Source of the DNA: Bauldia sp.
GTDB taxonomy: Bacteria > Pseudomonadota > Alphaproteobacteria > Rhizobiales > Kaistiaceae
Reading direction: 5' to 3'
DNA: 64,000 nt
Assembly (NCBI RefSeq): GCF_020442045.1
Contig: NZ_JAGRLA010000062.1
Coordinates: forward strand, 2,878-66,877
Shown here: piece after piece, positions 9,130-24,547 of the stretch
How positions within the stretch are numbered: position 1 is the stretch's first letter
Layout: each line of letters starts with the position of its first letter
Notes under the pieces: generated by a model
Seen by the model: only the letters and a program-made list of their open reading frames with translations
Databases searched by the model: none
What the model was told of the DNA's origin: nothing
Program-made: the position numbers and the translations under genes

Positions 9130-10175
9130 TGGGGCTGCCTTTCGCGGACGTAGGACAGCGCCAACAGGTGAAGCGTCGACGGGTAGTAGGTGGTCGGCTC
9201 GAAGCGCCGCAGGTCTTCCGGCACCGGCGTTCCGGCCGCGCAGGCAAGGGCGGCATCGAGCATCCGGTAGCCCGGGTCGGTCAGCGTCTCGACCGGCTGA
9301 CCGGTGGCGATATCGATGATTGCCGGGCCGATCGAGGCCGCGGCGTGCTCGAAATTCTCGAGGAGCGGGCCGCTCTTCGCACCGGCGCGCAGGAGATAAA
9401 GCGGGATCCGGATGGCGTTATAGCCGTAGACGGCAGGGAAATCCGGCGCCGGGGTCAGCCCCTCGGCGGAAATCGCGACCCAGTCGGTGGGAAGCCTGGC
9501 GGGACCGAAGCGGGCAGCGTTGATCAGTTCCGCACCCGATGCGGCAAGCTGCTGCCAGGGGTGATCCGGGGCGAGCTTCTCCAGCATCGGGAAGGCTTCG
9601 AATATCCAGTAGGATGGATTGACGACAAGCATCCCGTTGTTGTCGGCGCGGCCGAAGCCTTCCGCGCCCGGACGCAGGACGATGCGGTTGTTGGCATCGG
9701 TCAGCAGATTCTCGCCGATCGCGGAGGCGAGACCGCGCGCGGCCTCGCTGTAGCGCTGGTTCCGCCAGCTCTCGCCGGCGAGGCCGAGGGCGTAGGCGAT
9801 CAGGACGTCGCCATCGCTGGCATTATTGACATCGACGACGTGGGGCTTGGCCGAGGCGTCCCACTTCCAGGCGGCGAGACGGTCGCTGCGGATCAGCAAC
9901 TCGTTGCGGGTGAAGGTCCAGATCCGATCGAACCCGTCGCGGTCGCCGGCGGAATAGGCGAGCAGCAATCCGTAGCCCTGGCTCTCGCTGTGGCTGATGC
10001 CGCCATTGACGTCGTCGACGACGCGGCCGTCTTCTCCGACGAAATGGTCAGCATAGGCCGTCCATTCAGCGCCGCTGACCGTGCCCTCCATCGTCGGGGC
10101 CGGCTGGGCGGCGACGGGAAGCGCCGTGTAACAGGCTGCGACCACGGCCAGGCGACGGAGGAGGGAAGCGCTCAC
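9120..10175 (-). CDS. bcsZ: Endo-1,4-beta-glucanase, GH8 (BcsZ/CelC)
   Basis: SHSESQGYG, NNASDGD and YNAIRIPLY GH8 motifs; signal peptide; GTG start overlaps the bcsB TGA (GTGA). Confidence 0.9.
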   Translation of the reverse strand: MSASLLRRLAVVAACYTALPVAAQPAPTMEGTVSGAEWTAYADHFVGEDGRVVDDVNGGISHSESQGYGLLLAYSAGDRDGFDRIWTFTRNELLIRSDRLAAWKWDASAKPHVVDVNNASDGDVLIAYALGLAGESWRNQRYSEAARGLASAIGENLLTDANNRIVLRPGAEGFGRADNNGMLVVNPSYWIFEAFPMLEKLAPDHPWQQLAASGAELINAARFGPARLPTDWVAISAEGLTPAPDFPAVYGYNAIRIPLYLLRAGAKSGPLLENFEHAAASIGPAIIDIATGQPVETLTDPGYRMLDAALACAAGTPVPEDLRRFEPTTYYPSTLHLLALSYVRERQPQCL

Positions 10176-12682
10176 GAACGCCTCCCGAGCCTGGAAAGCA
10201 GGGCCGACGAGCAGATTCCGAGGACCGCGCAGAGCAGCACGAGGCCAATCGCGTAGCCGACGATGTTGATCGACAGCCAATTGGCCGCGACGAGCCGGAG
10301 GTTCTGGAGCGAAAAACCGTCGCCGAGGATGAAACGCTGGCTGTCGGCCGGCAGGATCGTCAGTCCGCTGGCCGCGTCGTAGCTGGCGATGCGTCCGCCG
10401 ACCACCGACCAGTATTGCCTGGTGGTGATTTCGGCGAGGCTGTCGACCAGCGCCTCCGTGGTCGGCGAGGCGACCAGCGTCCAGGTCTGGTCGCCGGAGG
10501 CGGGCGACTCGGCGACGATCAGCGTCGACCGGTTCTCGGGGTAGAAGGGCGGCTCGGTCGCCGACATCAGGGCGAGGGACGACAACGAGAGCTCGAAGGT
10601 CCGTTCGAGCCAGTTTTCGAAAGCGAGCCAGGTGCCGCGGACGCCGGAGGGATTGACCAGCTCGGTCTGCCAGCGGTCGTAGACGCCTTCGGTCCCGGCC
10701 GTTTCGCCGAAGGTCGCCGGCGGCGATGCCAGCGGGTCGAAGTCGAAGGGCAATCCGGTCACTTCCCGCGCCGACTGGCCGGTCCAGGTATTCTGGGCCG
10801 CCTCGTCAATTCCCATTCCGGCGAGGATGGTGGCCGGGAATTGATTGAGCGTGCCGACGAAGATCGAGGGAGTGGTATTCGTCGCCTGGGTATGGCCGAT
10901 GGCCGCCGGCACGATCCGATCGGCGGAGATGGCCAGCCGGGTCAGCAACATCGCAGCCGCCGAATAGGTCGCCGGGTCCTCGCGTCCGAGCACGACCTGG
11001 ACGGGCGTCACGGCGCGATCATAGGGGGAGCCGGCGCCGGCCAGCGCGGCGAGGTTGGGCCAGCGGCCGATCCGGGCGAAGTCCGGCATCTCGAATTCGC
11101 TGGTATCGAAGATCGCGAAGCGGGCGGGCATGTCGTCCGACTTGACGGGCGTGCAGGCGGCGTCGGCCTCGGTGTCGAGCACCGCCTCGACCGTCACCCG
11201 GTTGACCCCCGGCCGGAAATGGGTGAGCGCCACGCTGATCGGCAGGTGGCGGAAGATGTCGCCCGTACGGGAGGTCAGGGGCGTGTTGGCGGCGATATAG
11301 CCGTTGACATAGACGTCGATATGGCTGCCGGGGATGACCTCGTCGGTATAGGCCGCGTCGAGGTAGATCGTCGCCTCGCCATAAGCTTCCGCGTAGAAGT
11401 CGCTGGGCAGCGCGACATGGAAGTCACTGTGCGAGCGCCGCCCGGTGAATTCGGTGGTCGGGACCGCCAGCTCGGAGAATTTCAGCCGCGTTTCCCCGGT
11501 CAGTATCGGCACGGTCGGCAGCAGCCAGGGCGTGGTGTCGACGGCCGTCGGTATCATCCCGGCGGGACGCGCGACGGAGCCGGCGATCCGGTCGATCGCC
11601 GCCTCGACGGCACTCTGATTGGGGCCGGAGATGACTAGGGTCGGCGTGGCGCCGCCGGTGCCGATGAAGCCGACCACCGGGCCGGCCCCGGCCTGATCGG
11701 GCAGACCCGGAAGGGTGGCGAGCTCGCTCGCCGTGCCGACGGCGATCTGCAGGGTGCCGGGCGGCGGCGACTGAAGCGCCGTCGGCTCGATCCGGACCAC
11801 CTGCTGGCGGAAATTGCCGCGCAACGCGATGGCCTGTACGAGGCGCAGGAGATCGGCGCCGGCCAGCATCCGGTTGCCGCCGGGCAGGACCAGGCGGAGC
11901 GTCGTCGTGCCGTCGTCGGCGAAGCCGACGGCCGGGAGATCGTCGAGGGTGGTGAAATCGTTTCCGGGCGGGGCGTCGGCATAGACCAGACCGGTGCCGG
12001 GGCTCTCGATGTCGGTCCACAATTCGTAGGTCGATTCGATCGTGCAATCGGTGCGATGGCGCTGGTCGATCTCGAAGGTCAGGACGTTGACGCCGGCCTT
12101 GAGGACGCCGGCGGGAAGGTCGATGGTGTCGCGCTTGCCGTCTGCGACCGCGGCGAGGGAACCTTCGAAGACCCGCTTGTCGTTGATGCTGATCCTGAGG
12201 CTGGAGCTCTCCGGCGCGACGTAGATCGAGCTGTTGCGGGCGATGACCAGTTCCCGCGCGCGCCGCGCCTGGGAAGCGGTCAGGGCCACGCCCCAGGAAC
12301 GCCGCCCGGCTTCGCCCTCGAAGCGGAGCTTGGCCGCCGGGAGGATGAAGCGATCGATGTCGCCGGCGTATCTCTCCTCCGGTTTCGGTGCGGGCGCCGG
12401 CTCGCTCGGCGCGGCCGGCATCGCCGGCTGGACCGGTGCGGCTGGCGGTTCCGGAGCCTCGGGCAAGATCGCCGGCGCCGGCTGCGTCGCGGTATCGTCC
12501 GGGCCGGCATCGGGGAGCGTGTCAAACGGCATGACGAAGGTATCGCCGCCGGAGGGCTGCCCGATCACCGGCTCATCGCCACGCTCCGGCGACATGTCGA
12601 AGGGCGTCTGGGCGGCGGCCAGGGTCGGCAGGATGATCGCCGTGGCAAGCAACAGGCCTCTAACGCGGAAGACCGGACTCAT
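10172..12682 (-). CDS. bcsB: Cellulose synthase periplasmic subunit BcsB, about 836 aa
   Basis: Signal peptide, Pro-rich linker, QRHRTDCTIESTYELWTDI motif and a C-terminal TM anchor; ATGA overlap with bcsA. Confidence 0.88.
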   Translation of the reverse strand: MSPVFRVRGLLLATAIILPTLAAAQTPFDMSPERGDEPVIGQPSGGDTFVMPFDTLPDAGPDDTATQPAPAILPEAPEPPAAPVQPAMPAAPSEPAPAPKPEERYAGDIDRFILPAAKLRFEGEAGRRSWGVALTASQARRARELVIARNSSIYVAPESSSLRISINDKRVFEGSLAAVADGKRDTIDLPAGVLKAGVNVLTFEIDQRHRTDCTIESTYELWTDIESPGTGLVYADAPPGNDFTTLDDLPAVGFADDGTTTLRLVLPGGNRMLAGADLLRLVQAIALRGNFRQQVVRIEPTALQSPPPGTLQIAVGTASELATLPGLPDQAGAGPVVGFIGTGGATPTLVISGPNQSAVEAAIDRIAGSVARPAGMIPTAVDTTPWLLPTVPILTGETRLKFSELAVPTTEFTGRRSHSDFHVALPSDFYAEAYGEATIYLDAAYTDEVIPGSHIDVYVNGYIAANTPLTSRTGDIFRHLPISVALTHFRPGVNRVTVEAVLDTEADAACTPVKSDDMPARFAIFDTSEFEMPDFARIGRWPNLAALAGAGSPYDRAVTPVQVVLGREDPATYSAAAMLLTRLAISADRIVPAAIGHTQATNTTPSIFVGTLNQFPATILAGMGIDEAAQNTWTGQSAREVTGLPFDFDPLASPPATFGETAGTEGVYDRWQTELVNPSGVRGTWLAFENWLERTFELSLSSLALMSATEPPFYPENRSTLIVAESPASGDQTWTLVASPTTEALVDSLAEITTRQYWSVVGGRIASYDAASGLTILPADSQRFILGDGFSLQNLRLVAANWLSINIVGYAIGLVLLCAVLGICSSALLSRLGRRS

Positions 12683-14895
12683 CGGCCGGCCTCCTCGACG
12701 ACGTCCTTCGGCTCCGGCGCCGGAGTCGGCTCGGGGATCGCCGCCTCGCGCACCGCACCGATGCGGCGCATCAGGTAGATCATGCCGCGGCCGCTCTGGA
12801 CGACCGACAGCTTGAGGAACCAGAGGGTCCCCTTGATGATCCCGATATTGACCCGGCGTGACTCCTGGAAGTCGCTCCACTGCTTGGAATTGGCGAAGAG
12901 GAGGTCGGCGATCAGGCGGAAGTGGCTTGCCCCGTGCGGCATGAAGCGACATCCGATGAGAAGCGCATTGTCCTCCATATTCGAACTGCGGATCGACAGC
13001 GGCAGCGTCTTCTCGCCGATGTCGGACAGCGGTTCGAAGCTGATGCTCGACAGGCGGGTCATATCCAGATGCGGGATCGCGGTTCCGAGCACCTTGATGC
13101 GGGCGCCGCCGATCGAAACGTCCTCGATCGAGGCCGGGATCACCTCGTCGCCATAGTGGAAATCGCAGCGCCTGACGATCTCGACGCGGTGGCTGCTTTG
13201 CGGGTTCCGCCGCTCCGAGACGACGCCGAGGGCGCAGCCGACCATCAGCAGATTGAGGATGTTCCAGGTACCGACGACAAGCGCGACATCGGCCTCATAT
13301 GGCTGCGAGATCAGCCGCCAGGCGGTCATGCCGACGCCGGCCAAGAGGATCGCGAAGATGATGTAGAAGGGGCCGCCGAGCTCGGAGATGTAGTTCCTGT
13401 CGAGCTTCTCGTCCTTGGCGGTCACCTTGAAGGTCGGCTTGCGGGGATTCATCAGGACCGAGATCAGCGCCGGCAGCAGATAGACCGACTGGATCAGCTC
13501 GTAGAGCTCGGAGATCCACGGCCACCGGTAGCGGCCGTAGAGGTAGTTCTGCATCATCAGGTTGACGATCATGTACATCAGCGTATAGGCGGCGAATTCG
13601 CCACCCGACGCGACGAAGATCTCGGCTCCGAAGAAGAGATAGAAGAGCGGCGAGATCAGGAAGATGATGCGCGGGATCGGGAACAGCCAGAACAGCGTGC
13701 TCGACATGTAGGCGAAGCGCTGCGACAGGGCGAGGCCGCGCTTAAGGGGCGGGAAGCGGAAGCGCAGGATCTGCATCATGCCCTGACCCCAGCGCGTTCG
13801 CTGGCCGATGAAGCTGGCGAAGGTGGTGGGCTGGAGACCGGCGATCAGCGGCTTGTCGACGTAGACGCTGTGCCAGCCGCGGGCGTGGAGCTCGAGAGCC
13901 GTCTCGCAATCCTCGGTGATGCTGATGCCCGAGAAGCCGCTGGTCTCGGCCAGCGCGGTCCGCCTCAGCACCGCCGCGGAACCGCAGAAGAAGGAGGCAT
14001 TCCACTTGTCGAGGCCGCGCTGGATGATGCCGTAGAACATCTCGTTCTCGGACGGCATCTTGTCGAAGGTCCTGAGGTTGCGCTCGAGTGGATCCGGGTT
14101 GATGAAGAAATGCGGCGTCTGGACGAGGAAGAGCTTCTCGTCCTCCTCGAAATAGCCGACCGTCTCGGTGAGGAAGTCGCGGGCCGGCGCATGGTCGGCA
14201 TCGAAGACCGCGACGAGTTCGCCGGTCGAATGGTCGAGGCCGTTGTTAAGGTTACCCGCCTTGGCATGCTCGTTGCGGGCGCGGGTGAGGTAGTTGACCT
14301 CCAGGTCCCTGCAGAGCTTCTGGAGCTGGGCGCGGCGCTGCTGGGCCGTGACCGCTTCCTCGACATTGTCGGAGTTGCATTTCTGGTCGGTGCCGCCGTC
14401 GTCGAGCAGCCAGATCGTCAGCTTGTCGGCCGGATAGTCGAGCCCCTTGGCCGCCGCCAGGGTCGTGGCGAGCAATCCGGCATCCTCGTTATAGGTCGGG
14501 ACGAAGATGTCGACGGTCGGCAGCTTCTTCGGCTTCGGCGCGACGCGGCTCGGAAGCGGCTTGGCGACGACGAAGAGGCTGAGGAAGAGCATGAAAACGT
14601 TGTAGAGCTCGGCGCCGAAGAGGAGCACGCCGGGAACGAAATTCTCGGGCTGGTTGATCGGCGGGATGGTCTCGGTCGAGCGCCAGTAGACGTAACGCAG
14701 GACGATCGCGATCCCCAGCGAGAGCGCCATCAGCCGCCAGATGCCCTCGGGCCTGACGACCTTGAGGCCGATCATCGCGGTGACCACGAGCGATCCGGCG
14801 ATCAACTGCGCCTGGAGGCTGATCGGCAGCGTTATCAGAAAGAGCGCTGCCGCTGCCGCAATCGCCCAAAGAAGTCCCAATCCGATCTTCGTCAT
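12679..14895 (-). CDS. bcsA: Cellulose synthase catalytic subunit BcsA/CelA, 738 aa
   Basis: DDG, HAKAGNLN, DADH, FFCGS, TED, QRTRW, FKVTAK gating loop and C-terminal PilZ (DVSIGG). Confidence 0.96.
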   Translation of the reverse strand: MTKIGLGLLWAIAAAAALFLITLPISLQAQLIAGSLVVTAMIGLKVVRPEGIWRLMALSLGIAIVLRYVYWRSTETIPPINQPENFVPGVLLFGAELYNVFMLFLSLFVVAKPLPSRVAPKPKKLPTVDIFVPTYNEDAGLLATTLAAAKGLDYPADKLTIWLLDDGGTDQKCNSDNVEEAVTAQQRRAQLQKLCRDLEVNYLTRARNEHAKAGNLNNGLDHSTGELVAVFDADHAPARDFLTETVGYFEEDEKLFLVQTPHFFINPDPLERNLRTFDKMPSENEMFYGIIQRGLDKWNASFFCGSAAVLRRTALAETSGFSGISITEDCETALELHARGWHSVYVDKPLIAGLQPTTFASFIGQRTRWGQGMMQILRFRFPPLKRGLALSQRFAYMSSTLFWLFPIPRIIFLISPLFYLFFGAEIFVASGGEFAAYTLMYMIVNLMMQNYLYGRYRWPWISELYELIQSVYLLPALISVLMNPRKPTFKVTAKDEKLDRNYISELGGPFYIIFAILLAGVGMTAWRLISQPYEADVALVVGTWNILNLLMVGCALGVVSERRNPQSSHRVEIVRRCDFHYGDEVIPASIEDVSIGGARIKVLGTAIPHLDMTRLSSISFEPLSDIGEKTLPLSIRSSNMEDNALLIGCRFMPHGASHFRLIADLLFANSKQWSDFQESRRVNIGIIKGTLWFLKLSVVQSGRGMIYLMRRIGAVREAAIPEPTPAPEPKDVVEEAGR

Positions 14896-15045: not shown

Positions 15046-15927
15046 TCAGCCCTCCGGTCCGGGAACACGGGCGTAGCTGCCGGGGGATTCCGGCTCGGGC
15101 AGTGGGACAATGGGCCCCTCGACGACCGGGGGGGGCGCCGGTGCCGGCTTCGGCCTCGAGGGGGCCGGACGGACCGGCTTCGGTTCGACCGGAAGCGTCG
15201 GTTCGAAAGGCGCCGACACGCCGCCGAGGCTCTCGCTGACCGGCGGCGGCTTGCCGTAAGGGTTCCAGAGGGGCGAGGGCAGGTAGCCGACGATGGTGAA
15301 GCCGTACATCACCGAAAGCAGCTGCTGCTCGCTGGCGCGGGCATCGCAGAGCCGCAGCCGGATGCCGACCGAGCCCGTCGTCGGCAGGATCTGGTCCTGG
15401 TGGCGGCCGATATGCTGCCAGGCATAGAGGCAACGGTCGCCGGTCGAGGCGATGCCGGTGGCGAAGCCGAAGGGCCCGTATTTGTTCTGGGCGTAAAGCT
15501 GCGAGCGCCTCATCGGGACGCCGAGCAGGTACCAGTTGAATTCCTTGGCGATCTGCGACGGCGAGATCGAGTTCGGGCCGAGGGCGTTGTCCTGGACGGT
15601 GGTGTAGCCGACCGGGCCGTAGAGGGTGATGTTGAGGAAGTTCTGTCCCGACACCCTGGCGTTGGTCTCGAGGATCGTCTCGCGGACGATGGCGTCCTTG
15701 AAACGCTTCTCGAGGACGCCGACCGTCGCCGGCCCGCCCGGCGGCAGCGTGACGAAGGACTGGTTGGCCGGGAGCTCGGTCTTGACCCCCGCGATCCGCG
15801 GTCCCGACGCGCAGCCGGCGAGCGAACAGAGCAGCAAGAGAGCGACCGACAGCCGTCCGCCCCGACGCGGCGAAGCGCGCCTGGCAGCAAGCGCGATTCC
15901 TGACGGGGTGGGCTCGGCCAAGATCAA
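15046..15927 (-). CDS. bcsN: BcsN-like lipoprotein of cellulose operons
   Basis: Lipobox LLCSLAGC; GQNFLNITLYGP, NKYGPFGFA, CLYAWQ and IRLRLC; sits at the head of the bcs operon. Start codon uncertain (TTG). Confidence 0.65.
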   Translation of the reverse strand: MILAEPTPSGIALAARRASPRRGGRLSVALLLLCSLAGCASGPRIAGVKTELPANQSFVTLPPGGPATVGVLEKRFKDAIVRETILETNARVSGQNFLNITLYGPVGYTTVQDNALGPNSISPSQIAKEFNWYLLGVPMRRSQLYAQNKYGPFGFATGIASTGDRCLYAWQHIGRHQDQILPTTGSVGIRLRLCDARASEQQLLSVMYGFTIVGYLPSPLWNPYGKPPPVSESLGGVSAPFEPTLPVEPKPVRPAPSRPKPAPAPPPVVEGPIVPLPEPESPGSYARVPGPEG

Positions 15928-16274
15928 TCACACGGGTTGGGCTCGGCCGCGGCGAAAGCCGTCGGCAAAAAGCGGCCAATTTCCAGTGGATTAACCGTGT
16001 CGAATTATGCTTAACGAAGTCCTAATATCGGCGGTTTCAGGCGGGTTTGAGCCCGGTTTTCGGCACCGGCCGGACATCCGTCGACCGGTGGTGGCCCGCA
16101 GCGGCGCCGCGACACCAAGATCAGCCTCCAACCACAGTATCGCGTTGGCCGCGCGCGAATCACGGCCCGACGGTGAACAGCCGGCGCCGCTCGGCCCGTC
16201 ACGGCGGCATCCCGCCCGGTTTCGCGATCGCGGGAATGGCGGAAAGAAAGCGGAATCCGCGCTCTTGCGGGCCG

Positions 16275-17258
16275 TCAGGCAGCGACCAGCGGCACCAGTC
16301 GCGGCGGCTGGCCGGAGAGACCGAAGAGATCGAGGGCGAGATCGACGGTCAGGCGGTTGACCCGATCGACCGCCTCGGCGGTGTTCGAGCCGTTATGGGT
16401 GCCGAACATCAGGTGGTCGAACTTGCGGAGCGGGCTGTCCATGGGCAGCGGCTCGGTCTCGAAGACGTCGAGCGCGGCGGTCGCCACCTTGCCGCTTTCG
16501 AGCGCGGCGACGAGCGCCGGTTCGTCGATGATCGGACCTCGGGCGACGTTGACGATGCGCACGCCGTCCTTCATCCGCGCGAAGGCGTCCGTCGAAAGGA
16601 GATGGAAGCTCTCCGGCGTCAGGGCGCAGGTGACGACGATGAAATCGCTGTCGGCAAGCAGGCGGTCGAGACTGACCTGGGCCGCGCCCTCGCGTTGCAT
16701 GAGCGCCGGATCGATCTCGGCCGGATCATAGCCGATCACGGTCATCCCGAAGGCGGCGAGCCGACGGCAGGTCGCCCGGCCGATGCCGCCGAGGCCGATG
16801 ACGCCGGCGGTGCATCGGGACAGCGAGGTGCCCTCGACCTTGAGCCAGCCGCCCGACCAGACCGACGCGCTCATCCGGTGGAGGCCACGGGCGAGGTTGA
16901 CGACATAGGCGGCCGCGCAGTCGGCGACCTCCTCCGAGAAGACGCCCGGCGTGTTGTAGACGGCGATGCCGAGCTCGGCGGCGGCGGCCTTGTCGATACC
17001 GTCGGTGCCGATGCCCCATTTGATGATCGCCTCGAGCCCCGTCGCCTTGCCGGCCTCGAGGACCGGGCGGCCGATGATGTCGTCGCCGGCGATCACCAGC
17101 CGCTGCCCGACGATGACCTTCTCCATCTCGGCGGAATCGAGTTGCTGTCCGTCGACCGGAGGGATGCTGACCTGGATGCCATGCCCTTCGATCTCGGTAC
17201 GGAAGCGCTGATAGTGGCGCATCAGGTGGCCACAGGTAACGAGCAGGGTATGGGTCAT
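16275..17258 (-). CDS. D-isomer-specific 2-hydroxyacid dehydrogenase (PGDH-like)
   Basis: KWGIGTDGID, NTPG, GVIGLGGIG, VNVARG, LDVFETEP and THNGS; ATGA overlap with the upstream cytidylyltransferase. Confidence 0.88.
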   Translation of the reverse strand: MTHTLLVTCGHLMRHYQRFRTEIEGHGIQVSIPPVDGQQLDSAEMEKVIVGQRLVIAGDDIIGRPVLEAGKATGLEAIIKWGIGTDGIDKAAAAELGIAVYNTPGVFSEEVADCAAAYVVNLARGLHRMSASVWSGGWLKVEGTSLSRCTAGVIGLGGIGRATCRRLAAFGMTVIGYDPAEIDPALMQREGAAQVSLDRLLADSDFIVVTCALTPESFHLLSTDAFARMKDGVRIVNVARGPIIDEPALVAALESGKVATAALDVFETEPLPMDSPLRKFDHLMFGTHNGSNTAEAVDRVNRLTVDLALDLFGLSGQPPRLVPLVAA

Positions 17259-17944
17259 GCCTTCAGTCGTCCTTCCGCGCGTTCCCGATAGACGACCTCG
17301 GCAATGCGGAAGTTGATTTCCTCATCGATATCAACGGCTTCCCATGGCGACATCTCGAACATATAGGGGCGCCGTCCGAGACGGTTGCGGGTTTCAAGCA
17401 AGGTGTCGCCGCCGAAGATATAGAGGCAGGAATTCTCCTCGTAGAGCGGCGGCAGGTCCTGGGTTCTCAAGAGGATATTGGCGTTGTGATTGACCGGCCG
17501 GCAGAGCTGGTCCCACAGGCGGGTCTGATGCGCCGTCACCGAGAACAGGCTGTCGTAGTTCGGATAGTTCTTCTGGAAGGTCTCGACCGCGCCGTCGATC
17601 GTCTCGGTGGTGATCAGCGGGTTGGTCGAATGGGTCTGCAGATAGAAGCGCGACGGGACCTGCGCCATGTCGTGAAGCAGCACCTCGTTCATCGGGGTGG
17701 TGCCGTCGGTCAGATGGGCGGGCCGCTCGATCAGCACGACCGAGGGATATTTCTCGGCGCATTGCTCCATGATGATCGGCGAATCCGTATCGATGACCAC
17801 CTTCTCGACCGCCTTGCAGGCGAGGAGCACGTCGAGGACATGCTGGTAGAGGGGGCGGCCGTCTCCGAATGCCCGGTAGTTCTTTCCGGGCACGCGTTCC
17901 GAGCTGTGCCGCATCGGCATCAGTGCAACGATTTCGTGGGTCAT
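17255..17944 (-). CDS. Acylneuraminate cytidylyltransferase family protein (NeuA/KdsB-like)
   Basis: PMRHSSERVPGKN (P-x-R-x-x-S-x-R-x-x-x-K-N), QTHSTNPL, ENSCLY and AVDIDEE. Confidence 0.85.
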   Translation of the reverse strand: MTHEIVALMPMRHSSERVPGKNYRAFGDGRPLYQHVLDVLLACKAVEKVVIDTDSPIIMEQCAEKYPSVVLIERPAHLTDGTTPMNEVLLHDMAQVPSRFYLQTHSTNPLITTETIDGAVETFQKNYPNYDSLFSVTAHQTRLWDQLCRPVNHNANILLRTQDLPPLYEENSCLYIFGGDTLLETRNRLGRRPYMFEMSPWEAVDIDEEINFRIAEVVYRERAEGRLKA

Positions 17945-18990
17945 ACCGACGTGGATGCTTTCGATACGGATGGAGGATTCACTTCGGTCGAAACCGACAG
18001 GTCGTCTTCGTAGCTGATCCGCGCCCTCGACGCATGGGCCGACGTGTGGCCGACATGCGCCGGACCGTGGTGGCTCTCGGCGTCCGGCGGGAAGTAGAAG
18101 CGGTTCTTGATCTCGCTGGTGACCTCGGCCTGGAAACGATGGCCGAGATACGTGCCCCAGAACTGGTTGAAGCGGAACAGAAGGATGCCGCCGAACTCGC
18201 GGCGGAGCTGCCCCTCGCGCGCCGCCTGCCGGCTGTCGGCAATCACGGTGCGGACGGTCAGCGTGGCGAAATCGAGGATGGAGAAACGCAGGCCGGGCTC
18301 GATGCTGCGCAGCGCCATCGCCTCGCGGCGGTAGCGGTTGCGGACGCGTCCCCAGGATTCGTCGTGGACATGGATCACCTCCGCCTCGCTGGCATAGGAG
18401 ATCTGGATGCCGCTGCGCTTCAGCTCCTTGGACCAGGCGATGTCCTCCAGCCCGGTCAGCGTCTCGTCATAGGGACGGGTCTGCCAAAGGCTGCGGCGGA
18501 TGGCGCAATTGGCGTTGTTGCAGAAATAGCTCGACTGGCGGTGGGCCGACTGGTTCGGGAACCACTTGGCGAAAATCTGCCGCTCGGAGAATTTGGTGAT
18601 CTCGTTGCCGCGCTGCATGCCGTAGACGAGGCCGACGGCGGCATCGTCGAAGGGCTCGACCATCCGCTCGAGCCAGTCGATCCGTGTCGGATAGACGTGG
18701 GCGCTGGCGAAGACCAGGATGTCGCCATGGGCGGCCTCGCAACCGACATTCAGGGACCGGCCGAAGGAGAATTCCGCCTTGGGGATCGGGACGATGCGGG
18801 CACCGTAGGACTGCGCGATCGGCACGGTATCGTCGGTCGAGCCGGAGTCGACGAGGATGACCTCGAAATCCTGACGTGACTGGAGGGCGAGTCCCGCGAA
18901 AAGGCGACCGATGAAGCGCTCTTCGTTATAGGCGCGGATAACAACCGATATTTTCGGCCTGCTTCCGGAAACCTGATGTGAATCAGACAT
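17941..18990 (-). CDS. Glycosyltransferase family 2 (GT-A)
   Basis: ISVVIRAYNEE, LVDSGSTDDT, FSFGRSLNVG and GLEDIAW; FASAHVYP at the usual DxD position. Confidence 0.88.
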   Translation of the reverse strand: MSDSHQVSGSRPKISVVIRAYNEERFIGRLFAGLALQSRQDFEVILVDSGSTDDTVPIAQSYGARIVPIPKAEFSFGRSLNVGCEAAHGDILVFASAHVYPTRIDWLERMVEPFDDAAVGLVYGMQRGNEITKFSERQIFAKWFPNQSAHRQSSYFCNNANCAIRRSLWQTRPYDETLTGLEDIAWSKELKRSGIQISYASEAEVIHVHDESWGRVRNRYRREAMALRSIEPGLRFSILDFATLTVRTVIADSRQAAREGQLRREFGGILLFRFNQFWGTYLGHRFQAEVTSEIKNRFYFPPDAESHHGPAHVGHTSAHASRARISYEDDLSVSTEVNPPSVSKASTSV

Positions 18991-19256
18991 CTACCCGTCT
19001 CTGTCAGCGCGCCCCGCCAGACCTTCAGCCCGCATCGAACCGGCCGCGGGACTGCTCCCCGACCCTTGGCCCGACGCATCGTGATATATCCGAGGGCGGC
19101 GCGCAAAGTAAAGCGCGCCAACGGTCGCGCCGCAGCACCGTTCCGGGCTTTCCCGGCGGGTGTGTCATTGTTGCGGGCAGCGGCCGCAACCGCCGGCAAA
19201 CGGGACAAAGGGACCGACGATCACCGCGAGGCGCCCGAGGAAGCCGGTGACGGGCC

Positions 19257-20270
19257 TCAGGACTCCGCCGCGGTCGGGAAGCTCCGCTTCATCCGGCGCG
19301 CCTTCATCGCCTCCTGGGCCTCGGGCGTTCCGTCGTGGAAGGTGCCGAACCACCGGTCGAGCGGCACCATGCCGTCGGCATAGTTCACCTCGAAATATTT
19401 GTGGTGGAGATAGTGGGCGTAATACGAGGTGTCCATGCTCGTCTCGTCGCCCATCACCACCCGGTCGAATCCGGTGTGGCCCTGCGCCGGCGCCACGCCG
19501 AGCCGCGACGCGAGGTTGATCATGTGGATCGGATGGGACGGAATGAGGAAGAAAAGCAGGATGGTGGAGAAATAGGCAACGTGCTCGATCGGATGCATCG
19601 ACAGGCCGGACCACGGTCCCGGATTGACGTTGCGATGATGCAGGCTATGGGCGATCCGGTAGAGCGGCGGCCAGTGCATCAGGCGGTGGGCGAGGTAGAA
19701 GCCGACCTCGTGGATGAAGGGGACGATGAAGAACACCGCCACGAACCACACCGGATAATCGCCGAAGGTGATCAGCGGCGCGATGTCGTTGGCATAGGCC
19801 CACAGCAGCAGCACCTCATAGGCGGTCCAGATCGGCACGCCGCTCGCGAGCGTGTGGAACATGTTGTCCCAGGTCTGGTTGCCGAAGGCGAAGGCGGCGG
19901 ATTTTTCCTTCGGCCACTGGCGATTGTATTTGAACAACGTTCCCTGCTTCCGCCAGGAATACAGCCAGAGATGCCAGGCTCCGTAGACGGCGACCGCGAG
20001 GCCGAGATTGCGGACGAGGATGATGGCGACCCAGCCGATCGAGAAGTCGCGCATGGTTTCCAGCGACGGGGTGAGGAATTCCCAGATCAGGATCGCGGCG
20101 ACGGCATAGAGCAGGTTCCAGGGAAGGAAATATCCCGGGAAGCCGAAGAAGAACTTCAGGAGGGCACGGGGATCGGGTGGCCAGTCGAAAACCGGCCCAT
20201 AGCTCACCGGCTTGTTCGGCACCCAGTAAGCACCGCGCGCATCCAGCTTGCCGTATCTCGAATCGTCCAT
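19257..20270 (-). CDS. Sterol desaturase / fatty acid hydroxylase family di-iron membrane enzyme
   Basis: His boxes HRLMH, HSLHH and HYLHH; TM segments; SD GGGGAGG before ATG 20270. Confidence 0.85.
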   Translation of the reverse strand: MDDSRYGKLDARGAYWVPNKPVSYGPVFDWPPDPRALLKFFFGFPGYFLPWNLLYAVAAILIWEFLTPSLETMRDFSIGWVAIILVRNLGLAVAVYGAWHLWLYSWRKQGTLFKYNRQWPKEKSAAFAFGNQTWDNMFHTLASGVPIWTAYEVLLLWAYANDIAPLITFGDYPVWFVAVFFIVPFIHEVGFYLAHRLMHWPPLYRIAHSLHHRNVNPGPWSGLSMHPIEHVAYFSTILLFFLIPSHPIHMINLASRLGVAPAQGHTGFDRVVMGDETSMDTSYYAHYLHHKYFEVNYADGMVPLDRWFGTFHDGTPEAQEAMKARRMKRSFPTAAES

Positions 20271-20460
20271 GGCCGCATCCTCCCCGACCGATGATACCAC
20301 CTTGTCACCTCCCCGCGCAGCCTCCCCGTGGCGGAGCATTCATGCGGCGCGGGCAGGCGTTCCCTGATCGTGTCGCCGGGCGCGCCGGCGGGGTCTATGC
20401 CGCATCGCGTGTCCCGGGCTATTCCCTTTCCCGGTTCCAACCAGGCCAGGAAGGACTGAC

Positions 20461-21123
20461 ATGACCGTGCTTGTTCATCCCGTTTCCGGATCGATGCTTG
20501 CGGCCGAGGAGATCGAGGCCTGGCGGATGATCCCCGTCGCGGTCGCGGTCGACCTGACGCGCGACATCGGGCAGATCGATCCGGCCATACGTCCGCTCAA
20601 CCCGCCGGGACGGCAGCCGCGCCTGTTTGGTCGCGCCGTGACCGCGCGTTGCGAGCCGCCGGATTTCGGCGCGGTGGTCCATGCGCTGGATGTCGCCGGC
20701 CCCGGCGACGTGTTGATGATCTCCGCAGCGGGCAATGCCGACTTCGCCATGATCGGCGAGGTCCTCGGCGGATACCTGCGGCGGCGCGGCTGCGCCGGCC
20801 TGGTCTGCGATGGCGCGGTTCGCGACGTCGGCACCCTGGCGGGCTGGCCGAACTTTTCCGTCTATGCGCGGTCGATCACGCCACGCGGGCCGGAATCCGC
20901 CGAACGAGGGGCGGTCAACGCGCCCGTCGTGATCGGCGGGCAGCCGGTATCGGCCGGCGACCTTGTGATCGGCGACGATGACGGGGTCGTCGCCCTGCCG
21001 CCGGAGGCCGCCCGCTCCCGGATCGGGGCCGCGCAAGGCAGGCTCGCCCTCGAAGCCGAGTGGCAGCAAAGCCTGGCAAGCGGACGAACGGCGGCGGAGA
21101 CCTTCGGTTCCGGGACGGCCTGA
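20461..21123 (+). CDS. RraA family / HMG-CHA aldolase-like protein
   Basis: GPGDVLMI, AMIGEV, VCDGAVRD, GDLVIGDDDGVV; SD AGGAAGG. Confidence 0.85.
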   Translation: MTVLVHPVSGSMLAAEEIEAWRMIPVAVAVDLTRDIGQIDPAIRPLNPPGRQPRLFGRAVTARCEPPDFGAVVHALDVAGPGDVLMISAAGNADFAMIGEVLGGYLRRRGCAGLVCDGAVRDVGTLAGWPNFSVYARSITPRGPESAERGAVNAPVVIGGQPVSAGDLVIGDDDGVVALPPEAARSRIGAAQGRLALEAEWQQSLASGRTAAETFGSGTA

Positions 21124-21135
21124 TCCGGCGCCCGG

Positions 21136-21155
21136 CCGCCAGGCAAGCCTGGCGG
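21136..21155. terminator. Hairpin between convergent genes
   Basis: CCGCCAGG-CAAG-CCTGGCGG, 13 nt after the RraA-family stop. Confidence 0.45.
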
Positions 21156-21332
21156 CGAGGCGGTCGTGGAAAGACGCGGTCCTCCGGGAGCGTTCGGGCG
21201 GTGCGGATCGTGCCGGCGGCCATCACGGTGCCATCCCGCGTCGCGTTCCACGACGGGGTGGCGTCGTCGCCCGTCCCGCGAAATGGGGGGCGTGCCAGAA
21301 GGCTCCTCCGGCCGCCACGTCCTGAAGCGCGC

Positions 21333-22265
21333 CTATTGCCGGGACGGCCCGTCCGGTGACGACACCTGGATGTCGGGCCTGGCCAGGTGCGTGCGGACGA
21401 AACCGAGGCTGCGCCGCACGGCGGCGACGACCTCGCTGCTCGAAGGCGCCCTGGCCTGCCGCACGGGGTCTCCCCGCCCTGGTCGCCTAAGCCGGATCGG
21501 ATGCTCGATCCCGACCGGAATGCCGGCCTCGCGGATCGCGCCGAAGACCTCATCGTTGTAATTCACTACACCCTCTCCGATCGGACAATAGACCCAGTCA
21601 GCGCCCGACTCGCGCACATCCTTCAGATGAATATGCGCGCTGAATGGCAACGCCGCCTTCAGGTCGTCCAGCGCGTCGGTCTTGCGGCCGCCGTAGGTGA
21701 GCGCATTGCCGATGTCGTAGTTCAGTCGAAGATTGGGATGGGCGATCGCCGCCACGATTCGGGCGGATTCCTGTCCGGCCGGCAACAGGGCATCGGCTCC
21801 GTGGCCGGGGTTCTCGATTGCAAGCGTAACACCTGTGGAGGCGAAGGCGTCCAGCACCCCGCCGAGCAGGGCCTCAAACGTTGCTCGCCGCTCCAAGGTC
21901 GTGGCGTTGGAAATCAGGATCGAAGCGCCGGCCGCCGCGGCGAAATCGAGGCGGCGCAGGAGCTTCCCGGCGCTCTCGGCACGACCAAGATCCATATGCG
22001 CGGACAGCGCCCGAAGAGCCAGGCCGGCATCGGCGGCCGCGGCTGCCAGCGCGTTGCCGTTCCTCTCGGAGAACGTGGTCTCGTCGAACGGCATATAGCC
22101 GTCGATGTATGCGGGTTCGACCGCCGTCGCGCCGGCTTGCGCGATCATCTCAAGGCCCCGTCGGAACGAGGCGCCGTCGGTCACGACGGTCGATACGGAT
22201 ATCTGGGGCGACGCCTCGCGGTCGCCGTTCCCGACGCCTTTCGACACCAGACTTCTCCATGACAT
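21333..22265 (-). CDS. Sugar phosphate isomerase/epimerase (xylose isomerase-like TIM barrel)
   Basis: Metal-ligand pattern LAIENPG, LNYDIGN, HIHLKD and GIEH. The true start may be a few codons downstream. Confidence 0.8.
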   Translation of the reverse strand: MSWRSLVSKGVGNGDREASPQISVSTVVTDGASFRRGLEMIAQAGATAVEPAYIDGYMPFDETTFSERNGNALAAAAADAGLALRALSAHMDLGRAESAGKLLRRLDFAAAAGASILISNATTLERRATFEALLGGVLDAFASTGVTLAIENPGHGADALLPAGQESARIVAAIAHPNLRLNYDIGNALTYGGRKTDALDDLKAALPFSAHIHLKDVRESGADWVYCPIGEGVVNYNDEVFGAIREAGIPVGIEHPIRLRRPGRGDPVRQARAPSSSEVVAAVRRSLGFVRTHLARPDIQVSSPDGPSRQ

Positions 22266-22279
22266 CGTTGATGTTATGA

Positions 22280-22298
22280 TGGTATACTGAGTATGCTA
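22280..22298. promoter_or_regulatory. Imperfect palindrome, candidate GntR/FadR operator in a divergent promoter
   Basis: TGGTATACT-G-AGTATGCTA (2 mismatches from a perfect palindrome) in an AT-rich 85-bp divergent spacer. Confidence 0.45.
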
Positions 22299-22350
22299 TC
22301 CGAAGATCAAGCCGGAGCAGACAACCGGCTGGGCGATGCGGGGGGAGCAA

Positions 22351-23190
22351 ATGACGCGTTCGGTTGCCGTATTCGGGGCGGGCGGAAAAATGGGCTTCCG
22401 CGTCGCCAAGAAGCTGTTCGATGCCGGCTACGACCTGCGGGCGATCGAGATCGGCGAAGCAGGCAAGAAGCGTCTCACCGACGGCGGCATCGAGCCGGTG
22501 GGCATCGATGCCGGTCTCGACAGGGCCGAGGTCGTCGTGCTGGCCCTGCCCGACAACATCATCGGCAAGGTCGCGGCCGAGATCGAGCCGAAGCTGCCGG
22601 CCGGCACGATGCTCCTCATCCTCGATGCGGCGGCGCCCTACGCGGATGACCTTCCCAAGAACCGCCCGGACCTGACGTATTTCGTCGGCCATCCCTGCCA
22701 CCCGCCGCTCTATAACGACGAGACCGAATGGGACGCGCGCCGCGACTATCACGGCGGCGTCGCCAAACAGGCGATCGTGTGCGCGCTGATGCAGGGGCCG
22801 GAAGCGCATTACGCCGTCGGTGCAGAGATTTGCGAGGCCATGTGGTCACCGGTCACGACCACGCATCGCGTGACGACCGAACAGCTGGCGATTCTGGAGC
22901 CCGGCCTCTCCGAGATGCTCGCCATGTGCATGGTCGACGTCATGTGCGAGGCGGTCGACGAATGCGAGACCAAATACGGCATCCCCCGGCAGGCCGCGCA
23001 TGACTTCCTGATCGGCCATCTCAATGTCGAGATCGCAATGTGGTTCGGCTATTCGCCGAAGGTTCCATCCGATGCCGCGCTGCGCCTGCTGAGATTCGGC
23101 AAGTCGAAGATCATGCGCGAAGGCTGGCGCGATGCGCTTTCGCCCGCGGTCGTGCGCGAGGCGGCGGAGCTGATCGTCAATGCCAAGTAG
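22351..23190 (+). CDS. D-apionate oxidoisomerase-like protein (ApnO / PGDH_C family)
   Basis: AVFGAGGKMG, LALPDNIIG, LDAAAP, YFVGHPCHPP, ALMQGPE and LEPGLSE, recognised as the ApnO family signature; SD GGGGGAG. Confidence 0.75.
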   Translation: MTRSVAVFGAGGKMGFRVAKKLFDAGYDLRAIEIGEAGKKRLTDGGIEPVGIDAGLDRAEVVVLALPDNIIGKVAAEIEPKLPAGTMLLILDAAAPYADDLPKNRPDLTYFVGHPCHPPLYNDETEWDARRDYHGGVAKQAIVCALMQGPEAHYAVGAEICEAMWSPVTTTHRVTTEQLAILEPGLSEMLAMCMVDVMCEAVDECETKYGIPRQAAHDFLIGHLNVEIAMWFGYSPKVPSDAALRLLRFGKSKIMREGWRDALSPAVVREAAELIVNAK

Positions 23191-23232
23191 GGCGGCGCCC
23201 GCGATCCGGGCTCGGTGCGGGCGGGCCGGTCG

Positions 23233-23427
23233 ATGACCTGTCGCGGCGCCCTGATCGGATGCGGTTTCCTCGCTGAGGATCACATGGATGCCCGGGCCGG
23301 GATCGGCGGTACGGAAATCGCTGCCGCCCGCGGTCTCGGCGTGACGTTCGCCATCGGGTCCTTGCGAGCCGGCGAGGCCGTGGTGCCGCCGCCTCGCCAA
23401 GGAATCAACCAGCCGGCGCCGCGATGA
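23233..23427 (+). pseudogene. Remnant of a Gfo/Idh/MocA oxidoreductase (N-terminal ~32 codons)
   Basis: MTCRGALIGCGFLAEDHMDARAGIGGTEIAAA resembles the GxLIGCGFF..H..AW..I.G.EIVA start of Gfo/Idh/MocA enzymes, then loses similarity and stops at 23427. Confidence 0.6.
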
Positions 23428-23554
23428 AGCGCGCCGAAACGAAGGGATGCCGAGCGCCGCGGGGCGAGATGCAAATCCTGGTTTCGGGTTGCCCGGACCT
23501 TGATGGGAGCGACCGCTCCCGACCACCACACCAGCAAATGATGGGAGGAAGACC

Positions 23555-24547
23555 ATGAGATCGCTGACATCCACCGTAACTGCCTCGCTGATCGCCCTTG
23601 GCGGAATCGTGGCCGGTACCTCGGCCAACGCGGCGACGATCTGCTTCGCCTTCCAGGATCTGGAGACGGAATTCTGGGTCGCCGGTCACAAGGCGATCAC
23701 CACGACGCTTGCCGACCAGGGCCATACCGTCCTGGAGCGGAACGCAAACGAGGATGCCAACAAGCAGCTCGAGCAGATCAAGGATTGTATCGCCCAGGGC
23801 GTCGACGGCATCATCGTCATCCCGCAGGATGGCGAGAGCGCAGTGACCATCGTCAAGGAGGCTCAGTCGGCCGACGTGCCGATCGCCGTGTTCAACCGGC
23901 CGCCCACCGACACCTCCAAGGGCATCGTCGTCGTCGCCGACAACAAGACCATCGCCGAGCAGGCGGTCGACTACATCGTCGAGGAAGCTCTGGCCAAGGC
24001 TCCCGCCGACAAGACGCTGAACGCGATCATCATCGTCGGCGACCTGGGCGACCCCAACGCCGTGGGCCGCAAGGACGGCTTCTATGCGGCGATCGACAAG
24101 CACAAGGATCGCTTCAACGTCGTCGAGGTCGCGTCGAAGTGGGATGCCGCCACGGCGCTCGCCAACCTGGAGGCGGCGGTGACCGCGAACCCGGAGGTGG
24201 ACCTCCTCTTCACGTCCTCCGACTTCCTGTTCCCGACCATCCGTTCGGTCTTCGAGCCGCGCGGCCTCTGGAAAAAGCCGGGCGAGGACGGGCACGTGAT
24301 GATGGCCGGGCTCGACGGTGACAAGACCGCCTGCCAGCTGATCAAGGACGGCTACGTCGATGCCACCGGCGTCCAGGACCTCTACTTCGAGGCGGATGCG
24401 TCGCTGAAGGCCATCCTGGCGGCCATCGATGGCGGCGAGGCCCAGCCGAATGAAGTCGTGCAGGATCCCGGCTTCGCGCTGACGCAGGCCAACCTCGGCA
24501 CTGATGAAATGAAGATGTGGGGCTGCGTCCTTCTCGCTGGCAAGTAA
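23555..24547 (+). CDS. Sugar ABC transporter substrate-binding protein (RbsB-like)
   Basis: Signal peptide, EFWVAG, QGVDGIIVIP and AGLDGD; SD GGGAGG. Confidence 0.9.
   Translation: MRSLTSTVTASLIALGGIVAGTSANAATICFAFQDLETEFWVAGHKAITTTLADQGHTVLERNANEDANKQLEQIKDCIAQGVDGIIVIPQDGESAVTIVKEAQSADVPIAVFNRPPTDTSKGIVVVADNKTIAEQAVDYIVEEALAKAPADKTLNAIIIVGDLGDPNAVGRKDGFYAAIDKHKDRFNVVEVASKWDAATALANLEAAVTANPEVDLLFTSSDFLFPTIRSVFEPRGLWKKPGEDGHVMMAGLDGDKTACQLIKDGYVDATGVQDLYFEADASLKAILAAIDGGEAQPNEVVQDPGFALTQANLGTDEMKMWGCVLLAGK

Follow-up and report, generated by a model that had tools for sequence, protein, structure and literature searches.

A minimal three-gene cassette beside the cellulose operon of a Bauldia species and its candidate role in making and using a CMP-activated 2-ulosonic acid

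This report concerns three adjacent genes in a stretch of 64,000 nucleotides of Bauldia sp. contig NZ_JAGRLA010000062.1, which we call the window and to which all coordinates of these genes refer (the genome it comes from is 98% complete). The three open reading frames (ORFs), here the trio, all lie on the minus strand and encode, in this order, a protein with a glycosyltransferase family 2 (GT2) fold, which we name GT2x, a cytidylyltransferase, and a 2-hydroxyacid dehydrogenase (Table 1). An earlier interpretation made from the letters alone (the sequence-only reading) had described three translationally coupled genes on the strand of the cellulose gene bcsN and about 350 bp upstream of it, and this layout holds: both junctions are ATGA stop/start overlaps, and 347 bp separate the dehydrogenase stop from the TTG start of bcsN. 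A hairpin 3' of the upstream fatty-acid-hydroxylase gene likely forms the 5' boundary of the trio transcription unit. Because none of the three proteins has a membrane segment (no 19-residue hydrophobic window), all are probably cytoplasmic. None of the three reaches a curated NCBIfam equivalog cut-off.

Table 1. Positions in the window of the trio, its junctions and the features discussed with it
Feature	Position	Strand	Basis or remark
GT2-fold protein GT2x, 349 aa, first trio gene	17941-18990	(-)	PF00535
Cytidylyltransferase (CTP_transf_3), 229 aa	17255-17944	(-)	PF02348
D-isomer-specific 2-hydroxyacid dehydrogenase, 327 aa	16275-17258	(-)	PF02826 + PF00389
ATGA stop/start overlap, GT2x / cytidylyltransferase	17941-17944	(-)	reads ggtATGAccc
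ATGA stop/start overlap, cytidylyltransferase / dehydrogenase	17255-17258	(-)	reads ggcATGAccc
Codons for S96-A97-H98 of GT2x, site of the GT-A DxD	18697-18705	(-)	HMMER alignments
Terminator-like hairpin 3' of the fatty-acid-hydroxylase gene	19112-19131	(-)	pattern scan, weak consensus match
Conserved non-coding element, ~110 nt, directly upstream of bcsN	15914-16027	(-)	six-genome alignment
bcsN, first gene of the bcsN-A-B-Z-(TPR) operon (context only)	15046-15927	(-)	PF17038 at 5e-57
RraA-like gene	20461-21123	(+)	PF03737 at 1.8e-35

The three proteins

GT2x matches Glycos_transf_2 (PF00535) at 3.6e-24 with 86 bits, against a gathering cut-off of 23.3, and scores 62 bits at most with any NCBIfam model (MftF). 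Its family numbers more than 7800 homologues, the nearest of which, in Bauldia litoralis, is 80% identical. An AlphaFold2 (AF2) model (pLDDT 76.8) submitted to Foldseek returned the GT-A enzymes TarS, TarP, WrtF, PcManGT and GpgS with probability 1.0 and a TM score of ~0.5. With the inverting GT-A enzymes of family 2 (TarS, TarP, WrtF and SpsA-like proteins, GpgS being a GT-A relative), GT2x shares the GT2 domain, the predicted GT-A fold, the VDxGSTD nucleotide motif (here VDSGSTD) and an invariant E-D at the usual position of the catalytic base. It differs from them in carrying an invariant S-A-H in place of DxD and RxYN in place of PxYN, in a C-terminal half of its own (CNNAN, HxHxE, RNRYRRE and FRxNQFxGT) that has no sequence match in the PDB, and in being obligately linked, and often fused, to a cytidylyltransferase.

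The exchange at the DxD site, where the sequence-only reading had noticed a GT2 with FASAHVYP (18697-18705) instead of the usual motif, is borne out by pairwise and profile HMMER alignments that place S-A-H opposite D-A-D of 6p61, D-S-D of 3bcv and D-S-D of TarS (5tze); similarity of the sequence to solved structures ends near residue 120. We compared 74 homologues from Chloroflexota, Bacteroidota, Cyanobacteria, Actinomycetota and Proteobacteria, and S96 and H98 are invariant in all 74, as are R19, D48, D53, E182, D183, H207, H209 and E211, with R19 standing where GT2 enzymes usually carry the Pro of PxYN. Because S96 and H98 are kept without exception by members from several phyla, S-x-H is a family signature of GT2x and neither a chance variant nor a decayed motif, and the invariant Ser at the first Asp position, together with Arg for the Pro of PxYN, suggests that phosphate handling has changed.

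The second protein is a CTP_transf_3 enzyme (PF02348 at 5.4e-29, 102 bits) that falls far below the cut-offs of the known subfamilies: 81 bits against 205.7 for PseF, 24.6 against 155.2 for kdsB, and 35-39 against 193-255 for PRK05450-type models. R12, S15, K21 and N22 of the P-loop and the Mg site D205-I-D207 align with the CMP-NeuAc synthetase of Neisseria meningitidis (NmCNS; 1eyr), in which the carboxylate-binding Arg165 aligns with T161, directly preceded by R160; relatives linked to NeuB keep Arg there. Cytidylyltransferases linked to the dehydrogenase and those linked to NeuB are each 55-63% identical within their class and 23% identical between classes, and the two differ in the pocket by H105 versus R, T161 versus R, and N171-S172 versus T-G. 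The trio enzyme belongs to a clade distinct from NeuA, KdsB, PseF and the NeuB-linked cytidylyltransferases. The genome holds a separate, better-scoring CTP_transf_3 gene outside the trio, which is probably kdsB.

The third protein matches 2-Hacid_dh_C (PF02826) at 1.3e-54 with 184.7 bits and 2-Hacid_dh (PF00389) at 1.7e-13 with 50.9 bits. It scores 192 bits with the phosphoglycerate dehydrogenase (PGDH) model TIGR01327 (cut-off 454) and 132 bits with PRK11790 (cut-off 404), and its best PDB matches are to PHGDH, at 151 bits. The Arg-Glu-His catalytic residues are present, with VARG, ETEP and THNG aligning with PHGDH 7dkm. A GhrB model and 9m0t are also among the matches, and the 2-hydroxyacid dehydrogenase family includes 2-ketogluconate reductases. 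The enzyme thus looks SerA-like without being SerA, and we propose that it is an aldonate 2-dehydrogenase.

Inheritance, fusions and carriers without NeuB and KdsA

To follow the trio beyond Bauldia, we used 80 loci that carry GT2x, taken as contigs from one genome per species and spread over Chloroflexota, Bacteroidota, Cyanobacteria, Mycobacterium, Acidimicrobiia and Proteobacteria. The orthologous cytidylyltransferase is present in 58 of the 80 and the dehydrogenase in 49, and of the 71 loci that extend far enough downstream, 43 retain all three genes colinearly as GT2, cytidylyltransferase and dehydrogenase. Of the 18 genomes in which the cytidylyltransferase is separated from the locus, 15 have exactly one orthologue elsewhere. 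Across 251 evenly sampled Alphaproteobacteria, GT2x and the cytidylyltransferase occur in one and the same set of five genomes, side by side in each, and no genome holds only one of the two.

Searches with concatenated queries also recovered natural fusions of two kinds, both in the gene order of the trio. One comprises cytidylyltransferase-dehydrogenase fusions (528-622 aa), the other GT2x-cytidylyltransferase fusions (at least 40, of 541-576 aa) from Thermodesulfobacteriota and others; SAH of GT2x and QTHSTNPL of the cytidylyltransferase are retained in the fused proteins. Both kinds involve the cytidylyltransferase, as expected if it catalyzes the middle of three consecutive steps. Two of the fusions with the dehydrogenase are EukProt records (P0148 and P0149; 'Clim_evm135s157' and 'SAG11_NODE_1560...') of the same clade, and on these records the pathway would not be confined to bacteria.

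The sequence-only reading had remarked that no NeuB or KdsA synthase is present, which is true of the window; the genome as a whole lacks NeuB and carries two DAHP_synth_1/KdsA-family genes outside the window. Across the genome we found no homologue of NeuB, Capsule_synth or the sulfotransferases of the kinds seen at other loci. NeuB (PF03102) is likewise missing from 14 of 24 carrier genomes, among them the window genome, its two nearest relatives and four Mycobacterium, and in four of these NeuB-free carriers, namely two Mycobacterium, one Acidimicrobiales metagenome-assembled genome (MAG) and one Caenibius MAG, the DAHP_synth_1/KdsA family is missing too. In Anaerolineae with a nearby NeuB, that NeuB brings its own short-chain dehydrogenase/reductase (SDR) and its own cytidylyltransferase.

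Set beside the pathways to CMP-nonulosonates and to CMP-activated 3-deoxy-D-manno-octulosonic acid (CMP-Kdo), as formed by NeuB/NeuA, PseI/PseF, LegI/LegF and KdsA/KdsB, the cassette shares a CTP_transf_3 enzyme with P-loop and D-I-D, a place in surface-polysaccharide loci and a dedicated partner transferase, and in Anaerolineae it even stands beside a true NeuB module. It differs in needing no phosphoenolpyruvate (PEP)-aldolase synthase, in having a D-2-hydroxyacid dehydrogenase as partner, to which an SDR and a lactonase may be added, in a cytidylyltransferase of a separate clade (only 23% identical to the NeuB-linked ones), and in a candidate transferase of GT2 fold that belongs to none of GT29/42/52/80, GT30, GT99/107 or Maf. 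The trio is in our judgement very likely a functional unit independent of NeuB and KdsA, and it appears to be the minimal form of a widespread, conserved cassette, whose core it constitutes. Full-text literature searches found no description of this cassette.

These observations bear directly on the possibility that the trio handles a standard ulosonic acid, with the cytidylyltransferase as a second CMP-Kdo synthetase (or one for Kdn or Neu5Ac), the dehydrogenase modifying Kdo or a precursor, and the GT2 adding the product to lipopolysaccharide (LPS) or capsule. The KdsA-family genes of the window genome and the catalytic motifs that the trio enzyme shares with NeuA and KdsB would fit such a role, which is nevertheless very improbable given that the module occurs in genomes devoid of NeuB and the KdsA family (among them Mycobacterium, Acidimicrobiales and Caenibius), that the window genome has a separate kdsB-like gene, that the enzyme scores far under the PseF and KdsB cut-offs, and that its pocket is unlike that of NeuB-linked cytidylyltransferases, with Thr for the equivalent of Arg165 of NmCNS.

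A proposed oxidative route and its candidate transferase

The genes that accompany the trio at the 80 loci supply clues to its chemistry. A classical SDR is the most frequent neighbor (41 loci), followed by Capsule_synth (27), sulfotransferase (25), MptE-like/DUF115 (24), a second GT2 (21) and NeuB (18), and further repeated neighbors are PMT_2, FkbM methyltransferases and a PF04199 'cyclase' hydrolase. The module of Bacteroidota and Mycobacterium is embedded in Wza/Wzc/Wzx/Wzy polysaccharide loci. An SMP-30/gluconolactonase gene (PF08450, 5.6e-67), often directly 3' of the SDR, lies in or beside the module at L060, L061, L065, L076, L080, L105, L106 and on a plasmid of Sulfitobacter sp. D7, the hosts being three Mycobacterium loci, an Acidimicrobiaceae locus, Caenibius, two further Alphaproteobacteria and the plasmid, p4SUD7. 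Its best PDB match is regucalcin, followed by luciferin-regenerating enzyme and a Smp-30/Cgr1-family protein, and the module SDR has generic SDR matches only among PDB sequences. In the sampled loci, the SMP-30 gene and the PF04199 hydrolase are mutually exclusive; the latter, of cyclase fold, could be a lactonase analogue or an amidohydrolase.

Because SDR aldose 1-dehydrogenases, SMP-30 lactonases and 2-ketoaldonate reductases (GhrB/TkrA) are the established enzymes of the series from aldose through lactone and aldonate to 2-ketoaldonate, we propose that the cassette runs from aldonate to 2-ketoaldonate, CMP-glycoside and glycan. The families and their logical order are those of oxidative (non-phosphorylative) sugar pathways and ketogluconate metabolism, and SDR-lactonase pairs stand beside the trio in several phyla; the cassette differs in its biosynthetic setting (glycan loci) and its coupling to CMP activation, in lacking a dehydratase or aldolase, and in a dehydrogenase nearer to SerA than to GhrB. 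The trio is best explained as the minimal, self-sufficient form of a surface-glycan cassette in which a CMP-activated 2-ulosonic acid is both produced and consumed with no aldol-type synthase, by the following steps:

(i) The SerA-like dehydrogenase would oxidize the C2 hydroxyl of an aldonic acid to give a 2-keto-aldonic (3-hydroxy-2-ulosonic) acid. In fuller cassettes, an SDR sugar 1-dehydrogenase and the SMP-30 lactonase would produce the aldonate out of free aldose, while in the window genome it would be drawn from general metabolism.

(ii) The NeuA-like cytidylyltransferase would convert the keto acid to its CMP-glycoside and thereby pull the unfavorable oxidation forward. Supplying the 2-keto acid for this activation is most plausibly the function of the dehydrogenase, which may be physically coupled to its dedicated cytidylyltransferase.

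(iii) GT2x would transfer the acid, in the cytoplasm, onto a glycan or lipid-linked acceptor, with the invariant E182-D183 as its putative catalytic pair.

A dehydrogenase that makes a keto or hydroxy acid, its CMP activation and its transfer by an atypical GT2 were already the core of the sequence-only reading, and this core gains support from strict co-occurrence, fusions in both directions, carriers free of NeuB and KdsA, and the accompanying SDR and gluconolactonase, while the roles suggested for an RraA aldolase and for the bcs operon fall away (see below). We judge the odds of the complete mechanism, from aldonate through 2-ketoaldonate and CMP activation to transfer by a GT2x with His in place of DxD, to be evenly balanced.

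The identity of the transferase is where explanations diverge most. An MptE-like protein, which is related to the Maf and Cst enzymes, is a plausible CMP-sugar transferase, yet PF01973 (E <= 0.001) is missing from 13 of 28 carrier genomes, four of them complete or near-complete (G004, G091, G050 and G047), whereas GT2x is always present. Because of these absences and the fusions, we favor GT2x as the user of the CMP-acid, and the DxD-less protein is our best candidate for its transferase. In sialyltransferases, catalytic His residues act on the monophosphate leaving group. By analogy, H98 might act in this way. Equally, H98, H207 and H209 might jointly coordinate a metal, on the model of DxH-type GT-A enzymes. 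That a missing DxD means metal independence is something we only infer, since the invariant H98 and the downstream HxHxE could bind metal.

The second option would make GT2x an ordinary NDP-sugar glycosyltransferase with its metal on His98 and His207/209, acting on the same glycan (for instance by adding the residue that accepts the CMP-acid) while an unrelated enzyme transfers the acid. Such a role would suit the invariant His at the second Asp position with the invariant HxHxE downstream, the typical GT2/GT-A fold with its VDSGSTD nucleotide motif, and the circumstance that we know of no GT2 with a CMP donor. It sits poorly with a co-occurrence with the cytidylyltransferase that is perfect at the level of genomes, with the frequent fusions of the two, with the roughly half of carriers that offer no other candidate CMP-dependent transferase, and with the altered phosphate handling suggested by S96 and R19, and we consider it unlikely.

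GT2x is the first gene of the module, and it could instead act early, as a GT-A-fold NDP-sugar hydrolase that releases free aldose (compare NeuC and PseG), after which the SDR, lactonase and dehydrogenase would oxidize the aldose, the cytidylyltransferase would activate the product, and an MptE-like or other enzyme would transfer it. A free aldose does require a source, 24 of the 80 loci have an MptE-like gene after the module, and GalE adjoins the trio on the Sulfitobacter plasmid. Where MptE-like domains are absent, in 13 of 28 carriers including complete genomes, this scheme is left with no transferase, however, and trio-only loci such as that of the window lack the SDR and lactonase needed next. 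Fusion of a first with a fourth step would be less natural than fusion of consecutive steps, and in an enzyme that hydrolyzes UDP-sugars one would expect DxD to persist. We therefore rate a hydrolase as quite unlikely. Glycosyl-glycerate, bacillithiol-like and F420-like chemistries, raised by weak matches to the GpgS and MftF models, were dropped as they leave the cytidylyltransferase without a role.

Several points weigh against the proposed route and against GT2x as its transferase. The dehydrogenase most resembles SerA, and the equilibrium of such dehydrogenases normally favors reduction. The window trio has no adjacent SDR or lactonase, so the source of its aldonate is assumed, and in some loci a KynB-type 'cyclase' hydrolase beside GT2x suits N-acyl chemistry better than lactone hydrolysis. 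Absences from MAGs may stem from incompleteness. An MptE-like protein follows the module in the 24 loci mentioned, and the window genome itself encodes elsewhere a 1630-aa protein with two weak MptE/CST-I-like domains. Finally, H98 with H207, H209 and E211 might bind metal, by analogy with DxH-type GT-A enzymes, in which case GT2x may use an NDP-sugar.

The 1630-aa protein lies on the minus strand of another contig of the window genome (G000 contig C108:27335-32227, or L107:7336-12228) and comprises an N-terminal GT2, two GNGPSLKGF segments (the weak MptE-like/CST-I sialyltransferase-like matches) and an FkbM methyltransferase. It belongs to a GDP-sugar locus, adjoining genes for GDP-mannose 4,6-dehydratase, an epimerase and UDP-glucose dehydrogenase, and may be a polymerase-terminator of O-antigen or exopolysaccharide (EPS); it could also be a second user of CMP-sugars.

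To our knowledge, all CMP-activated sugars described derive from PEP-aldol synthases of the NeuB and KdsA types, and genomic screens for sialic-acid-like sugars rely on these synthases, so that a synthase-free oxidative route, if true, would be invisible to them. That the cassette represents both an aldolase-independent route to a CMP-2-ulosonic acid and the first GT2-derived, His-based and probably metal-independent CMP-sugar transferase is a tentative proposition, to which we give somewhat less than an even chance. The product of the route would be a 3-hydroxy-2-ulosonic (for example, hex-2-ulosonic) acid residue. If true, this would add a new class to the acidic surface sugars and a new type of donor to the chemistry of the largest glycosyltransferase family, and would offer glyco-engineering a compact unit of three genes. 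The cassette is widespread, with thousands of metagenomic proteins and carriers in Mycobacterium, Chloroflexota, Bacteroidota, Cyanobacteria, Proteobacteria and even eukaryote records; a hexulosonic residue, isobaric with hexuronic acid and acid-labile, may have been overlooked in glycan analyses across many phyla and some protists.

The residue of the Escherichia coli K3 capsule is a 4-deoxy-2-hexulosonic acid. Acid-labile side branches of hexulosonic acid in this capsule demonstrate that such residues exist in nature (bioRxiv 10.1101/2025.01.29.635457). The likeness lies in the occurrence there of non-Kdo hexulosonic acids as acid-labile side branches, and any tie between K3 and the cassette is hypothetical. 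The SugarBase preprint reports new CMP-ulosonates, none of them linked to the trio genes.

The cellulose operon and other neighbors

Downstream of the trio, bcsN is followed by bcsA, bcsB, a glycoside hydrolase family 8 (GH8) bcsZ and a gene for a TPR protein. The sequence-only reading had placed the trio upstream of this operon and named cellulose, besides LPS or a lipid, as a possible acceptor. In favor of a link, the trio lies on the same strand 347 bp upstream of bcsN, the pattern scan predicted no terminator in the gap, and the order trio-bcsN-A-B-Z is kept in the window genome and its two nearest genomes. The link is nevertheless confined to one Bauldia sub-clade: there is no bcs gene in the 80 one-genome-per-species loci or in five other alphaproteobacterial loci (85 in total). 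Within the genus, 11 of 13 genomes have BcsA and three have the trio, which leaves eight with bcs and no trio; the three trio genomes are those with the most similar BcsA (89-90%), and three relatives that were examined have bcsN-A-B(-Z) without it.

Between the two gene groups, directly upstream of bcsN, lies a conserved non-coding element that contains ATTAGGACTTCGTTAAGCATAATTCGACACGG and TGTGATTGATC. It aligns in six genomes of the genus, of which three have the trio and three do not; conservation ends upstream of it, and it has no Rfam match. The element is probably the promoter or leader of bcsN itself and marks the 3' boundary of the inserted trio. The trio is thus an accessory that was inserted next to an ancestral cellulose operon, whose leader stayed in place, and the adjacency reflects one evolutionary event.

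That the trio is a bcs accessory decorating cellulose or a Bcs component with an acidic residue is accordingly a highly improbable alternative, for it has against it the bcs-free loci (0 of 80 and 0 of 5), the eight genus genomes with bcs alone, a leader conserved regardless of the trio, the single event behind the adjacency, and the probable cytoplasmic location of the trio proteins, known cellulose modifications being periplasmic. Because its proteins have no membrane segments and are probably cytoplasmic, secreted cellulose is an unlikely acceptor. The bcs-free loci, the trio-free bcs genomes and the bcsN leader kept without the trio rule out coupling to bcs as a general link; the adjacency is probably not functional, and we hold it very likely that the trio has no functional tie to bcs. 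For the window, the cellulose neighborhood would then be incidental to the trio.

On the other side of the trio, window positions 19257-24547 contain a membrane fatty-acid-hydroxylase-family gene, the RraA-like gene, genes for a xylose-isomerase-like TIM barrel and for a protein with the C-terminal domain of 6-phosphogluconate dehydrogenase, and a sugar ABC transporter. The region resembles an island for the catabolism of sugar acids, with no relation to the trio. The nearby RraA aldolase, which the sequence-only reading thought might assist the dehydrogenase, is a real gene, but neither it nor the other upstream genes have a counterpart beside the trio in the two nearest genomes; as a candidate for the missing synthase it was ruled out, for it has no counterpart next to the trio in those genomes or at any other locus.

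Among other carriers, the 85-kb plasmid p4SUD7 of Sulfitobacter sp. D7 (L108, NZ_CP020698.1 41231-55744) gives a cultured roseobacter the full cassette and makes it a convenient experimental system; the genes are those for SMP-30 lactonase, SDR, GT2, cytidylyltransferase, dehydrogenase, GalE, a 960-aa MptE-like protein and a methyltransferase. In the Saprospiraceae/Sphingobacteriales loci L001, L003-L006 and L033, the GT2 is accompanied by an FkbM methyltransferase and the PF04199 'cyclase' hydrolase, with a Uma2 nuclease gene lying between them at some of these loci, and the cytidylyltransferase lies elsewhere in the genome.

As for the cellulose genes themselves, the BcsA and BcsB ORFs as listed (window 10172-12952 and 12679-14895) overlap by ~270 nt, so the BcsB start is probably further downstream than listed. 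Among the relatives, in which bcs loci were noted at G008:C32:15913-18075 and G005:C94:7883-10084, one member of the genus has an open frame of 1488 aa through bcsA, a possible BcsA-BcsB fusion, and another has an in-frame TGA in bcsA.

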